This document shows positions 9,230 through 15,499 of a DNA stretch of 64,000 nt, in pieces. Position 1 is the first letter of the stretch. Each line of letters opens with the position of its first letter. Under the pieces are notes generated by a model, which was given only the letters and a program-made list of their open reading frames with translations, was not told where the DNA came from and did no database searches. Origin of the DNA: an uncultured Actinomycetes bacterium (GTDB taxonomy: Bacteria > Actinomycetota > Thermoleophilia > UBA2241); NCBI GenBank assembly GCA_963709345.1, contig CAVPVX010000004.1, forward strand, positions 319,257 to 383,256. The letters run 5' to 3'. A program made the translations under genes and the position numbers.

Positions 9230-10348
9230 ATGGACGTCCTGCTCGCCATCCTTCGCGCCCTCGCCTTCGTCGTCATCGCCTACACGGTGGTGTTCGTCGC
9301 GGCGCTGGTGAACATCGTCTTCGAGCGCCGCGTCCTCGCCTTCATGCAGGACCGCCACGGGCCCAACCGCACGGGCCCGCACGGCGTGCTGCAGAGCGTC
9401 GCCGACGCCTTCAAGATGATGGGGAAGGAGGACTTTCGCCCGCTGCTCGCCGACCCGTTCCTGTTCACGCTCGCCCCGGTCATGGTGATGATCGGGGCGG
9501 TGGCCGTGCAGTTGGTGCTCCCGTACACGGCCGGCATCACTGCGACCGACCTCAACGTCGGCGTCATCTTCATCGTCGCGATCACCAGCTTCACGACGTT
9601 GGCGATCCTGCTGGGCGGCTGGTCGTCGCGCAACAAGTACTCCCTGGTCGGCGCGCTGCGCGCCGCCGCCCAGATGATCAGCTACGAGATCCCCATGATC
9701 CTCGGCCTGATCGTCGTCGTCATGGTCGTCGGTTCGTTCAGCGTCTCCGCCGTTGTCGAGGCGCAGGCCGGCTTCCAGTGGATCGCGTTCTACGCGCCCT
9801 TCACCTTCCTGATCTTCTACATCGCCTCGATCGCGGAGCTCAATCGCGGCCCCTTCGATCTGCCCGAGTCCGAATCGGAGCTCGTGTCCGGCTACGGCAC
9901 CGAGTACTCGGGCATGCGCTTCGGCATGTTCTTCCTCAACGAATACGCCGGCATGACCATCATGTCGATGGTCGCCGTGACGCTGTTCTTCGGCGGCTGG
10001 CAGGGTCCGTACGACAGCGCCGTGGTGTTCTTGGGCGTGTCGTGGATAGGCCTCGCCTGGTTCATCCTCAAGACCTACGTGCTCGTCTTCGCCCTGGTCT
10101 GGATCCGCCTGTCGCTGCCGCGTCTGCAGGTCGACCAGCTCATGGGCTTCGCCTGGAAGATCCTCATCCCGCTCGGCCTTGCGAACATCCTCGCCACGGC
10201 GGCGGTGATGCTCTGGGTGCCGAGCTGGAAGTGGGGGCTCGCGGTCTTCAGCTGGGTCGCGCTCCTCGCCTTCGTCGGCCTCTTCGACCCGATCCTCAAG
10301 TACCGCCTGCGCAAGCAGCGTGAGCGCCGGCCGGTGGTGAGCGCCTGA
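9230..10348 (+). CDS. nuoH: NADH-quinone oxidoreductase subunit H
   Basis: ERRxxAxxQxRxGPNRxGP, NKYSLxGALRAAAQxISYE, NRxPFDLPExESEL, RxDQLM-type motif. Confidence 0.95.
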   Translation: MDVLLAILRALAFVVIAYTVVFVAALVNIVFERRVLAFMQDRHGPNRTGPHGVLQSVADAFKMMGKEDFRPLLADPFLFTLAPVMVMIGAVAVQLVLPYTAGITATDLNVGVIFIVAITSFTTLAILLGGWSSRNKYSLVGALRAAAQMISYEIPMILGLIVVVMVVGSFSVSAVVEAQAGFQWIAFYAPFTFLIFYIASIAELNRGPFDLPESESELVSGYGTEYSGMRFGMFFLNEYAGMTIMSMVAVTLFFGGWQGPYDSAVVFLGVSWIGLAWFILKTYVLVFALVWIRLSLPRLQVDQLMGFAWKILIPLGLANILATAAVMLWVPSWKWGLAVFSWVALLAFVGLFDPILKYRLRKQRERRPVVSA

Positions 10349-13024: not shown

Positions 13025-15499
13025 ATGGCGACCACGGCGGAGAACGTACCCCAGACGAAGCCGCGCCCCGGCCAGATCACCCTGACCATCGACGGACAGG
13101 AAGTCACCTGCGAGCGCGGCGACACGATCCTCGAGGCTGCGCAGCGCATCGGCATCCACATCCCGACTCTCTGCTACGAGCCGCGGCTCCCGGCCACCGC
13201 CGCCTGCCGCATGTGCATCGTCGAGGTCGAGGGCGCCCGCAAGGTCGTCCCGAGCTGCTCCTCGGCGGTCAGCGACGGCATGGTCGTGCGCACCAACACC
13301 GACAAGGTGCGCGCCATGCGGCACCTGTATCTCGAGCTGCTGCTCAGCGACCACAACTCGTTCTGCACGCCGCCGTGCCGCGACGCCTGCCCGACGCACA
13401 TCAAGATCCCGCAGTTCCTCGACTACATCGCTCACAAGGACTACAAGAACGGCGTGCGCAAGCTGCGCGAGGATCTGCCCTTCCCGGCCATCTTGGGGCG
13501 CGTCTGCCCGCGGCCCTGTGAGGGACCGTGCCGTCGCCAGCTCGTGGAGCACCCCATCACCATCTGCCAGCTCCACCGCTTCATGGCCGACCAGACCATC
13601 GACGAGGAGCAGACCGGCGAGCTGCTGCTGCCGGTCGAGCCGAAGGCCGACACCGGTAGAAGGATCGCCGTCGTGGGTGGCGGGCCCGCCGGCCTGGCAT
13701 GCGCGTTCTATGCCCGGCTCGAGGGGCACTCGGTCAAGATCTTCGAGGCCCTGCCCAAGCCGGGCGGTATGCTCCGCTACGGCATCCCCAGCTACCGCCT
13801 GCCGCGCGACCTCCTCGACAAGGAGATCAACGTGCTCTGGCGCATGGGTGTCGAGATCCAAGTCGACAGCCGTCTCGGCGTTGACTACCAGCTTGAGGAT
13901 CTGCTGGGCGAGTACGACGCCGTCTTCCTCGGCCTCGGCGCCTTCAACAGCAACGACATGCGCATCCCCGGTGAAGACGCCGACGGAGTCGTCACCGCCG
14001 TCGACTTCCTCGGCGAGCTCGAGCGCACCGGCGAGGTGCACGTGGGCAAGAAGGTCACCGTCATCGGTGGCGGCTTCACGGCCATGGACGCCTGCCGCAC
14101 CGGCTTGCGCAAAGGCGCCGCCGAGGTCACCTGCCTCTACCGCCGCTCGCGCAAGGAGATGCCGGCGCACCACACCGAGGTCGACGAGGCCGAGGAGGAG
14201 GGCGTCAAGCTCGAGCTTCTCTGCGCGCCGCTCCGCGTGCTCACCGACGGCGCGAACAAGGTCACCGGCATCGAGATGCAGCGCATGGAGCTGGGCGAGC
14301 CCGACGCCTCCGGGCGCCGCCGCCCCGTGCCGGTCGAGGGCTCGGAGTTCGTCGTCGAGTGCGACCAGGTCATCGCCGCCATCGGCCAGTACCCCAAGCT
14401 CGACGGCACCAGCGAGGAACAGGGCGTCAAACGCACCAAGTGGCGTACGATCGAGGTCGACGACTGGACCTTCCAGACGGATGATCCGCGCGTCTTCGCC
14501 GGCGGTGACGCCGTGCTCGGCGCGCAGACGGTGATCCAGGCCGTGGCGCAGGGCAAGAAGGCCGCCTGGAGCATCGACGCCTTCCTGCGCGGCGCCGACA
14601 TGCGCGACGTGGGGCAGTCGCTCGCGGAGCTCAAGGCCACGCCGTTCTTCAACGCGCTGACGAACAAGACGGATCTCGACCCGCGCATCGCGCGAATGGC
14701 CGAGATCCCACCCGTGTTCATCGACATGACCACCGACGTGAAGCACCCGAGCCCGCCCGCCGAGATGCCCAAGCTCCCCCCCGACGAGCGCAGGACCAAC
14801 TTCAAGCAGATCGAGCTCGGCTTCAGCGAAGAAGAGGCCGTCCGCGGCGCCGAGCTCTGCCTCGATTGCTACTGCCCGGCGAACGGCAAGTGCGACCTCC
14901 AGCGGTACAGCATCGAGTACGAGGTGTTCAAGAACCGCTTCCACGGCGGCGAAGCCCACGACTACCCGGCCGACTTCCGCCACGACTTCATCATGCGCGA
15001 GCCCAACCGCTGCATCAATTGCGGGCGCTGCGTGCGCGTCTGCCGCATGGAGGTGGGCTCGAGCTGCTACGACAACATGGGCCGCGGGTTCGACTCCATC
15101 GTCAGCACGGCCGACAATCTGCCGCTGCAGCTGGTCGGCTGCGTGAGTTGCGGCAAGTGCGCGGAGACCTGCCCGACCGGGTCCATCGAGACCAACCCGC
15201 GCCTGCTCGCCAGCTACGACCTGGACGAGAGCCGCTGCATCTTCTGCGGGGAGTGCGTCGAGGTCTGCCCCTACGACGCGCTCGAGCAGACCGACTACTA
15301 CGAGCTTGCCGGCTACAATCGCACGACCATGGCGAGGGAGTCGCTCTACGTGCGTGAGCCGCGCCCCGCCGACCCGCTGCGCGAGACGCTCCCCGACCTC
15401 GTGCCGCACGTGCGCGACGCGGTGCTGGGCGCCGGCTGGGTGTGGGATCCGATCAAGGACGACCCGATCGACCTGGGCGACCCGGAGGAGGCCGGCTGA
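13025..15499 (+). CDS. NuoG/HydA N-terminal Fe-S region with an inserted GltD/SudA-like FAD/NADPH domain, fused to the NuoI C-terminal half
   Basis: [2Fe-2S] region CY..[8 protein letters not shown]..PSC; GltD-like [22 protein letters not shown], YGIPxYRLP, [12 protein letters not shown], GGD; then CDLQ, [25 protein letters not shown]; ends with NuoI-like [32 protein letters not shown]. Confidence 0.88.
   Translation: [824 protein letters not shown]

Follow-up and report, generated by a model that had tools for sequence, protein, structure and literature searches.

A complex I operon of an uncultured Thermoleophilia bacterium with NuoI split between the first and last genes of an inserted NfnABC/Bfu-like module

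The described system closest to the one reported here is Nuo-Bfu, predicted by Schut et al. (2022; PMC9304861) to be a complex I of 14 subunits (A-N) that has BfuABC in place of NuoEFG. The passages of that paper on Nuo-Bfu name Deferribacteres, Proteobacteria, Planctomycetes, and Nitrospirae as hosts and predict a Por-Bfu as well; the word NuoI is absent from its main text. The window analyzed here, a stretch of 64,000 nucleotides from an uncultured Actinomycetes bacterium of the Thermoleophilia (GenBank assembly GCA_963709345.1, contig CAVPVX010000004.1, positions 319,257 to 383,256), carries on its plus strand (6565-21370) a tightly packed operon composed of nuoA, B, C, D, and H, three inserted genes, and nuoJ, K, L, M, and N. 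NuoI, which binds clusters N6a and N6b and bridges NuoG to NuoB, is split in this operon between two polypeptides, each half being fused to one end of the inserted module.

The operon resembles Nuo-Bfu in that BfuABC-type genes lie in the middle of the nuo cluster and replace NuoEFG, in that the B subunit keeps its extra Fe-S domains, and in that menaquinone is the predicted partner, as in the passages on Nuo-Bfu in PMC9304861. It differs in the position of the cassette, which lies inside nuoI rather than between nuoD and nuoH, and in having 13 genes, with NuoI split and fused to the C and A subunits, whereas Nuo-Bfu's 14 subunits imply a separate NuoI. Furthermore, the A subunit is of the Nfn type, with a GltD/NfnL domain for flavin adenine dinucleotide (FAD) and NADPH but lacking the Fdh/NuoG-like C-terminal domain, and the hosts are Thermoleophilia. 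The case works like Nuo-Bfu, but the division of a core Fe-S subunit between two polypeptides is structurally unusual. We found no description of a split NuoI in the open literature (subscription journals and supplements lay outside the scope of the search), and none is mentioned in the portions of PMC3144371 and PMC4758237 that were covered.

NuoI is divided between two fusion proteins

The first inserted gene (10348-11109, + strand) encodes P0001, a protein of 253 amino acids in which the N-terminal half of NuoI is fused to a NuoE/NfnC-like [2Fe-2S] protein. The N-half covers residues 1-75 (10348-10572) and is delimited by NuoI/NDUFS8 alignments from the PDB and by the NuoI model TIGR01971, a model of 121 positions with a curated cut-off of 113.05 bits, of which positions 2-66 match residues 8-74 (E 2.6e-13, 49.6 bits). 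It holds the single CxxCxxCxxxCP motif of the protein (C52-P63, nucleotides 10501-10536). A poorly conserved linker (10573-10644) leads from the N-half to a thioredoxin-like [2Fe-2S] domain of the NuoE/NfnC type (10645-11106; PF01257, E 3e-47; NF005722 over cut-off), with residues 100-244 matching NuoE and PF01257. The third inserted gene (13025-15499, +) encodes P0003, an NfnA-like large subunit of 824 amino acids fused to the C-terminal half of NuoI. This C-half comprises residues 724-775 (15194-15349) and carries the third Cys motif of the protein (C738-P749, 15236-15271). Residues 724-770 match TIGR01971 positions 69-115 (E 7e-16, 57.9 bits), and TIGR01971 is also the top NCBIfam match for the last 135 amino acids taken alone (57.2 bits). 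The protein ends in a variable tail (15350-15496), with an identity of 0.11 between families. The two proteins cover the NuoI model in a complementary and nearly contiguous manner (2-66 and 69-115).

The PDB chains of NuoI, NDUFS8, and Nqo9 align to residues 4-73 of P0001 through their first motif only, and the same chains align to the tail of P0003 via their second motif and the segment after it; the pattern is the same when intact NuoI proteins from this bacterial class are aligned directly. NuoI-specific flanks extend beyond the Cys motifs in both halves, and the two CxxCxxCxxxCP motifs with their NuoI-specific N- and C-terminal flanks are present only when P0001 and P0003 are taken jointly. 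The locus thus retains what characterizes NuoI/Nqo9/NDUFS8 (TYKY), namely the N-terminal segment, the two Cys motifs, the stretch following motif 2, and a location between nuoH and nuoJ, the N-half starting at the end of nuoH and the C-half ending at the start of nuoJ. Unlike in these proteins, however, the parts reside on two polypeptides encoded 4.7 kb apart, neither of which scores over the family cut-off. Both fusion reading frames are open.

A six-frame TIGR01971 search of the whole genome returned no intact NuoI over the cut-off, and the two halves ranked first and fourth among its 44 matches. An intein or another splicing route to an intact NuoI was also considered, and nothing suggesting one appeared in the Pfam and NCBIfam scans. 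These results bear out the first-pass annotation, which had read the gene in the nuoI position as one CxxCxxCxxxCP motif followed by a NuoE domain and had placed the missing half at the C-terminus of the 824-amino acid protein (the peptide quoted for it starts at Y731, nucleotide 15215, compared to an estimate of about 15212); the alignment of both parts to the NuoI model and the search for an intact nuoI elsewhere in the genome, both of which it had proposed, agree with its view of a split subunit. The order nuoH-[N-half::E]-F-[A::C-half]-nuoJ is most simply explained by a history in which a three-gene cassette was inserted into the loop between the two motifs of nuoI.

The operon comprises 13 genes, with no nuoE, nuoF, or nuoG between nuoD and nuoH and no free-standing nuoI. 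The core of a respiratory complex I of the 11-subunit type is represented by NuoA, B, C, D, H, J, K, L, M, and N, all of which are present and apparently intact. No second full-length copy of nuoA, B, C, D, H, J, L, M, or N was found by tblastn in the genome (G000; 3.11 Mb in 11 contigs, 98.06% complete). Since the genome contains neither second copies of these subunits nor an intact NuoI, the operon encodes its only respiratory complex I, one that does without a conventional NuoI. The GC content is approximately 0.65-0.70 throughout, and the three inserted genes show no compositional break.

By their domain content, the inserted genes encode what we identify as a full NfnABC/Stn-type (Bfu) module, not NuoEFG. 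The C subunit (NfnC/BfuC) is represented by the NuoE-like, thioredoxin-type 2Fe-2S domain of P0001. The second inserted gene (11106-13022, +) encodes P0002, a NuoF homologue of the NfnB/BfuB type with 638 amino acids, in which Pfam recognizes an N-terminal 2Fe-2S domain, a site for flavin mononucleotide (FMN) and NADH, an N3-type 4Fe-4S region, and a C-terminal 2x[4Fe-4S] domain. Residues 34-621 of P0002 align with residues 3-583 of NfnB (9bov_B of the Caldicellulosiruptor NfnABC, E 1.7e-238), and P0002 also matches chain B of 8oh5 and other Bfu B subunits, the terminal Fe-S domains included. The NfnA-like part of P0003 (residues 1-723, 13025-15193; Pfam Fer2_4, Fer4_20, Pyr_redox_2, and Fer4_Nqo3) contains a 2Fe-2S domain, a GltD/NfnL-like FAD-NADPH domain with a 4Fe-4S pair, and a ferredoxin-like domain of the NuoG type, the site of motif 1 (15011-15043) and motif 2 (15140-15175). 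Residues 19-744 of P0003 align with residues 5-698 of NfnA (9bov_A, E 2.4e-190). The alignment to the 1178-amino acid NfnA stops at residue 698, where its Fdh-like domain begins; P0003 continues instead as the NuoI C-half, and the Fdh/NuoG-like C-terminal domain of NfnA is absent from it. The first-pass annotation had described the insert as a NuoE domain and a new head. The NuoE-like domain stands, but the set as a whole is NfnC/NfnB/NfnA-like (Bfu), with an extra FAD/NADPH site.

The three subunits thus align with those of NfnABC/StnABC near full length and with the same cofactor domains (structures 9BOV/9BP5, 8OH5, and 9N5U; PMC11829005, structural passages). They differ from NfnABC in that the NuoI C-half stands in place of the Fdh-like domain (after approximately residue 698), the N-half is added to the C subunit, and the genes lie in a nuo operon. 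According to the same passages of PMC11829005, NfnA holds one 2Fe-2S and six 4Fe-4S clusters, and in Csac NfnABC the A2-A4-A5 cluster branch toward the Fdh-like domain is called a dead end; here, in contrast, the sequence runs from the A3/A4 ferredoxin-like domain on into the NuoI half. The Bfu A subunit is described as having a Y-shaped cluster arrangement, the A4 arm of which takes electrons from partner modules in WorABCSL (PMC12318220, in the passages on this complex).

Conservation and distribution of the split

Homologues of P0001 numbered 1186, and the best 120 of them are almost all 250-253 amino acids long, with identities of 67-91% and from many sources. A search of genome contigs, with one genome per species, returned 64 loci, of which 56 are of the Thermoleophilia/Actinomycetota type (L009-L064). 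A full-length open reading frame (ORF) joining the N-half to NuoE is present in 47 of these 56 loci, and a full-length large subunit with the C-half (808-880 amino acids) in 27; the others are truncated at the end of a contig or fragmented. The gene order nuoABCDH-[NuoI-N::E]-F-[A::NuoI-C]-nuoJ...N is constant as far as each contig extends. The fusions recur at 66-96% identity within family f1, the family of the window's genome, and at 30-50% identity in a second family, f6. The four motifs together contain 16 Cys, none of which varies among 33 sequences from the two families. The N-half is the best-conserved part of P0001, with a mean identity of 0.85 within f1, 0.74 within f6, and 0.52 between them, the corresponding value for the linker between the families being 0.11. 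The C-half has identities of 0.84 (f1), 0.65 (f6), and 0.48 (between families), on par with the flavoprotein catalytic domains.

We also compared the locus with contigs from public sequencing runs; these are assembled contigs of at least 85% likeness from metagenomes holding relatives, and they show bridging, not depth or transcription. Contigs from four unrelated runs (X1, X2, X18, and X20) bridge the junctions. The passage from nuoH to the N-half is bridged by X1 (10168-10626), X2 (10304-10626), and X20 (10000-10544), that from the N-half motif to the NuoE domain by X1 (10438-10829), X2 (10509-10873), and X18 (10519-10916), and that from the NfnA-like part to the C-half by X1 (15058-15280) and X18 (15149-15410). 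In the conserved NuoF region X2 has many joints, of low likeness, which we take to come from other organisms. The recurrence of the same order in many independent assemblies and the bridging contigs of four runs indicate that both junctions are genuine and in frame, as had been claimed when the locus was first annotated.

Intact NuoI is found in 115 of 151 sampled genomes of the class. Within family f1 it is found in 10 of 25 other genomes, and the genome studied here and 15 of the 25 show none. At the two loci fetched, both from the genus of the window's genome, the intact NuoI of family f1 lies in a canonical 14-gene nuoA-N operon (L101 in G134:C2; L102 in G128:C4). The subunits of this operon share no more than about 25-54% identity with their counterparts in the window. 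At least one genome of family f1 carries both a canonical operon (L102) and a split operon (L040), these two loci being on a contig of equal length (2,109,999 bases).

Family f6 has a two-gene variant between nuoH and nuoJ at 14 of 14 fetched loci (L087-L100), as far as the contigs reach. The first protein, of approximately 604 amino acids, combines the NuoI N-half, a NuoE remnant lacking the 2Fe-2S Cys, and a NuoF core lacking the extra Fe-S domains; the second, of approximately 770-840 amino acids, is an NfnA-like protein fused to the NuoI C-half (for example L087, 4887-9279, - strand). A third layout came from a search of 1.84 billion representatives with the N-half, which gave 1445 matches at E 0.001 or below. 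A Pfam scan of ten single-stretch matches found a NuoE-type PF01257 domain in four (251, 274, 225, and 241 amino acids); three others (215-246 amino acids) have, from inspection of their sequences, a NuoI-type N-terminus, and some cluster members are labelled Chloroflexi or Candidatus Limnocylindria. The 246-amino acid type accounts for 220 stretches in metagenome contigs of the Joint Genome Institute (JGI). At all six long metagenome loci examined (L115, L131, L137, L142, L158, and L159) it belongs to a stand-alone cluster of nuoB, the N-half fused to a NuoE remnant (246 amino acids), a NuoF core (443 amino acids), and an NfnA-like protein fused to the C-half (801 amino acids), as in L137 at 8392-13654. 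These loci have a GC content of 0.47-0.56 and unrelated flanks (cytochrome P450, a tetratricopeptide repeat (TPR) protein, and GH1). From its presence in the f1, f6, and metagenome layouts, the split is old and widespread. Bifurcation is not a common property of the split lineages, because the f6 and metagenome variants lack the NuoE 2Fe-2S cluster and the extra NuoF domains.

One further locus, L103 (G100, family f4), carries an 894-amino acid GltD-like ORF after nuoB, C, and D (4965-7649, - strand) with 30% identity to residues 102-673 of P0003. Near it, TIGR01971 positions 40-121, which include both motifs, match in a 919-amino acid open frame. Should both belong to a single protein, NuoI would be fused here in another manner, one that would recall the gltD-related subunit that replaces NuoI in mbx-like operons, as described in a portion of PMC4758237.

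Proposed trans ligation and electron flow, and alternatives

The clusters of a 2x[4Fe-4S] ferredoxin fold are each ligated by three Cys of one motif and a fourth contributed by the other. P0003 carries three Cys motifs beyond its His/Cys cluster region (C663-C673, C706-P717, and C738-P749). Motifs 1 and 2 fall in a ferredoxin-like domain common to NfnA, NuoG, and HydA (PF22117 at 655-720), and because they correspond to the ferredoxin-like domain of NfnA, motif 3 is an orphan in its own chain. Since the fold swaps the fourth Cys between motifs, the orphan motifs of P0001 and P0003 would be expected to complete each other. We co-folded residues 1-100 of P0001 with residues 600-824 of P0003 and four 4Fe-4S clusters. 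The interface score (interaction prediction score from aligned errors, ipSAE) had a median of 0.41 (runs 0.41, 0.43, and 0.38), compared to 0.00 for the best control; the runs shared at least 66% of their contacts, and the predicted local distance difference test (pLDDT) of the partner was at least 50. Among solved complexes 58 of 80 reach the mark for a pass, as do 2 of 110 mismatched pairs, but with scores of 0.60 or below only 7 of the 80 solved complexes and both mismatches reach it. The co-folding, which the first-pass annotation had suggested for the two chains, therefore lends weak support to their association and does not show which motifs pair. An AlphaFold2 fold of P0003 600-824 (26-row alignment) had a mean pLDDT of 30.6 and a predicted template modeling score (pTM) of 0.14, and has no bearing on cis or trans pairing. 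Taken together, the assignment of Cys to motifs, the 16 invariant Cys, and the weak co-folding pass suggest that the two NuoI halves probably rebuild the NuoI fold in trans and hold two clusters between two proteins. Such a fold is plausible because designed half-ferredoxins ("semidoxins") homodimerize and work in vivo (PMC12648291). The arrangement proposed here is like that of semidoxins in that a 2x[4Fe-4S] fold arises from two half-size chains with one Cys motif each; it is unlike these designed homodimers, and the putative small natural ones, in that the halves are different parts of NuoI situated in large multidomain proteins.

Our overall explanation, to which we assign a probability of roughly 70%, is that the operon encodes a sole complex I with an NfnABC/Bfu head and with NuoI rebuilt in trans, which passes electrons from NAD(P)H to menaquinone. 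A core of the 11-subunit type (NuoA, B, C, D, H, J, K, L, M, and N, and NuoI) would receive an NfnABC/Stn-type flavoprotein head in which the C subunit is NuoE-like, the B subunit is NuoF-like and carries FMN, and the A subunit is NfnA-like with FAD and a site for NADPH. The three module genes would sit inside the former nuoI, so that the C subunit begins with the N-half and the A subunit ends in the C-half in place of the Fdh-like domain. The halves would fold into one NuoI-like 2x[4Fe-4S] domain, each cluster having three Cys from one chain and the fourth from the other, and this domain would dock on NuoB/NuoD as NuoI does. Electrons would enter from NADH at the FMN and/or from NADPH at the FAD, pass along the Fe-S chain of the head, and then move through the two trans-held clusters and N2 in NuoB to menaquinone, while the membrane arm would pump protons. 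What we observe is the domain layout of the proteins, its conservation, and that the genome has no other NuoI; we infer the trans assembly, the direction of electron flow, and the substrates. The ferredoxin-like domain of P0003 directly precedes the NuoI C-half, and the repeated linkage of the split module to nuoB fits a role beside cluster N2. Ferredoxin may also take part in the three-gene form, by confurcation or Nfn-type transhydrogenation, because the B and C subunits of this form keep all Bfu hallmark domains; a role for ferredoxin cannot be the common core function, because two variant lineages lack those domains.

Several points weigh against this explanation. Each half alone is far below the NuoI cut-off (49.6 and 57.9 compared to 113.05 bits), and the trans model rests on sequence and prediction. 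The co-folding pass is weak and comes without a contact list, so that the motif pairing of the model is not visible, and it may reflect likeness to, or memory of, solved NuoI. The metagenome variant cluster does not adjoin membrane-arm genes, and both it and the f6 variant lack the NuoE 2Fe-2S cluster and the extra NuoF domains. The support from the RNA libraries X18 and X20, which may hold DNA, consists of assembled contigs only and is at most a hint of expression. In addition, the spacing of motifs 2 and 3 of P0003, with 20 residues between P717 and C738, resembles that of small clostridial-type ferredoxins, and the generic models Fer4_7 (706-752) and NF006221 (706-767) align the two motifs as a dicluster domain in cis. 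Because of this spacing and these alignments, cis pairing is compatible with the sequence taken alone. In that case motifs 2 and 3 would form an ordinary 2x[4Fe-4S] domain within one chain, there would be no inter-chain cluster, and the N-half, having a single cluster or none, would serve only to dock the head to NuoB/D/H; the weakness of the co-folding result also speaks for this possibility. We nevertheless consider it improbable, since motif 2 is already used with motif 1 according to both PF22117 and the NfnA alignment, and since cis pairing leaves motif 1 and the N-half motif partnerless, yet their Cys are invariant in the 33 sequences and the N-half is the most conserved part of P0001. 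A potential concern of another kind is that the split is an artefact or a sign of decay, be it a misassembly, a frameshift artefact, or a pseudogenized nuoI in a disused complex I. The genome does seem to carry indel errors or decay elsewhere, its paralogous clusters on contigs C7 and C3 being frame-broken. Such an origin is exceedingly improbable, however, given in-frame fusions in dozens of independent assemblies from two families at the identities reported above, invariant Cys ligands, strongly conserved halves, and junctions bridged by contigs of four unrelated runs.

An alternative that accepts the architecture is that the complex works in the opposite direction or by another chemistry, with menaquinol and the proton-motive force mainly serving to reduce NAD(P)+ and/or ferredoxin (reverse electron transport), or with the enzyme acting chiefly as a membrane-anchored Nfn transhydrogenase for which quinone reduction is secondary. 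The head is of the full NfnABC type, with a ferredoxin-binding-type C-terminal domain on the B subunit. Further NuoE-, NuoF-, and GltD-like paralogues are found in the genome, including a ferredoxin-linked Por-Bfu-like cluster, and an aldehyde:ferredoxin oxidoreductase gene is located at 45-1994 of the window; taken together, these features suggest an anaerobic, ferredoxin-based metabolism. The sequence does not fix the direction, but the reduced variants, which have lost the ferredoxin-related domains and keep only the FMN and FAD sites, fit a simple NAD(P)H dehydrogenase better, and the operon is the only complex I of the genome, for which reasons we regard the opposite direction or another chemistry as unlikely.

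NuoI (TYKY/NDUFS8) is an invariant core subunit of complex I that is here naturally cut between its cluster motifs in three conserved layouts. This suggests that two chains can together re-form the ferredoxin fold, both clusters lying between them, and it provides a test case for the half-ferredoxin (Eck-Dayhoff/semidoxin) idea. The operon illustrates one way to graft an electron-input module onto the ancient 11-subunit core, which bears on the origin of the N-module. A complex I with a predicted NADPH-binding flavoprotein head is widespread in uncultured Thermoleophilia and in soil metagenome contigs, which opens respiratory NADPH oxidation, or membrane coupling of the Nfn type, to direct testing.

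The Por-linked paralogue and the genomic setting

A paralogous Bfu module is encoded in the same genome on contig C7 (459944-465753; locus L085, 4813-10757). Its first gene has a single Cys motif before NuoE, and its 1088-amino acid large subunit consists of an NfnA-like part, motifs 1-3, and a PorB-like thiamine pyrophosphate (TPP) domain; the E and F genes are broken into several frames by assembly indels or decay. An intact Por-linked cluster is found in a genome of the same genus (L114 in G002:C1, 2458-10996), with the order porG, porD (intact), porA, motif::NuoE, NfnB-like, and NfnA-like::motif 3::PorB (approximately 1086 amino acids). The Por-type fused C-terminal part is conserved and was located 33 times, in 32 of the 151 genomes sampled from the class; these belong to families f1 and f4. 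The region of the third motif in the Por-linked proteins matches HycF/NuoI-type models (TIGR01971 positions 69-118), and the N-terminal motif has no NuoI family match at E 1e-6. As in Por-Bfu, the Bfu module of the paralogue is encoded with subunits of a 2-oxoacid:ferredoxin oxidoreductase, in the layout single-motif::NuoE ... NfnA-like::motif 3; unlike in the split-NuoI operon, the large subunit runs into a PorB-like TPP domain and an intact PorD is present.

We compared 35 large-subunit sequences in a quick IQ-TREE analysis, with branch support from the Shimodaira-Hasegawa-like approximate likelihood ratio test (SH-aLRT) only; high-scoring segment pairs (HSPs) shorter than 400 amino acids (L065, L066, L069, and L070) and the duplicate L085, which is the C7 locus of G000, were left out. 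The nuo-linked sequences of f1, those of f6, and the Por-linked sequences are each monophyletic (SH-aLRT 100). The three groups cluster together with one long Planctomycetota branch (SH-aLRT 91), the branching order among the three not being settled. The closest unfused E-F-A modules, those of Planctomycetota (L065-L070), were considered as canonical Nuo-Bfu and rejected, as no flanking nuo genes were detected at E 1e-10.

We tentatively raise the possibility, which we hold to be doubtful, that the split NuoI is a natural and portable split-ferredoxin plug in which two [4Fe-4S] clusters are ligated by two chains, that it hard-wires an electron-bifurcating NfnABC to a proton-pumping complex I, and that it has been reused for the PorB-fused oxidoreductase. 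If this were true, one machine would couple NADH, NADPH, ferredoxin, and menaquinone to the proton gradient, and the plug would represent, in present-day organisms, the stage of half-ferredoxin dimers that has been proposed in the evolution of ferredoxins.

A second, closer pair of paralogues is located on contig C3 of the same genome (16306-18577; L086), where NuoE-like and NfnB-like sequences with 57% and 60-77% identity occur without the NuoI N-half. This copy is recovered in at least five tblastn pieces, which points to frameshifts or decay, and no large-subunit homologue was detected on C3.

At the start of the window (45-1994, +) is the gene for the aldehyde:ferredoxin oxidoreductase (AFOR_N and AFOR_C, E 5.6e-131), which fits a ferredoxin-based, probably anaerobic metabolism.

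The remaining genes of the operon are all on the + strand. Upstream of the inserted module are nuoA (6565-6963; NCBIfam NuoA models, best E 9e-30), nuoB (6630-7523; NF005012/TIGR01957 over cut-off), nuoC (7510-8022; TIGR01961, E 2e-35), nuoD (8015-9229; NF004739 over cut-off), and nuoH (9230-10348; NF004741 over cut-off). The ORF listed for nuoB probably extends too far at its 5' end, the NuoB domain being its residues 127-280; aligned with PDB chains, NuoB retains the N2 ligand pattern CC...C...CP. The best PDB matches of NuoD are the complex-I-type chains NdhH and Nqo4. Downstream are nuoJ (15496-16008; PF00499, E 7e-30, and NCBIfam NuoJ; the listed ORF begins at 15442 and the start is uncertain), nuoK (16008-16316; PF00420, E 5.5e-26), nuoL (16330-18246; NF005141 over cut-off), nuoM (18248-19834; TIGR01972 over cut-off), and nuoN (19835-21370; PF00361, E 5e-71). 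An ORF at 16022-16351 was rejected as nuoK, being in the wrong frame and without any family match. The true nuoK overlaps a longer spurious ORF (15306-16316) and is easily missed, a typical trap at such a GC content.

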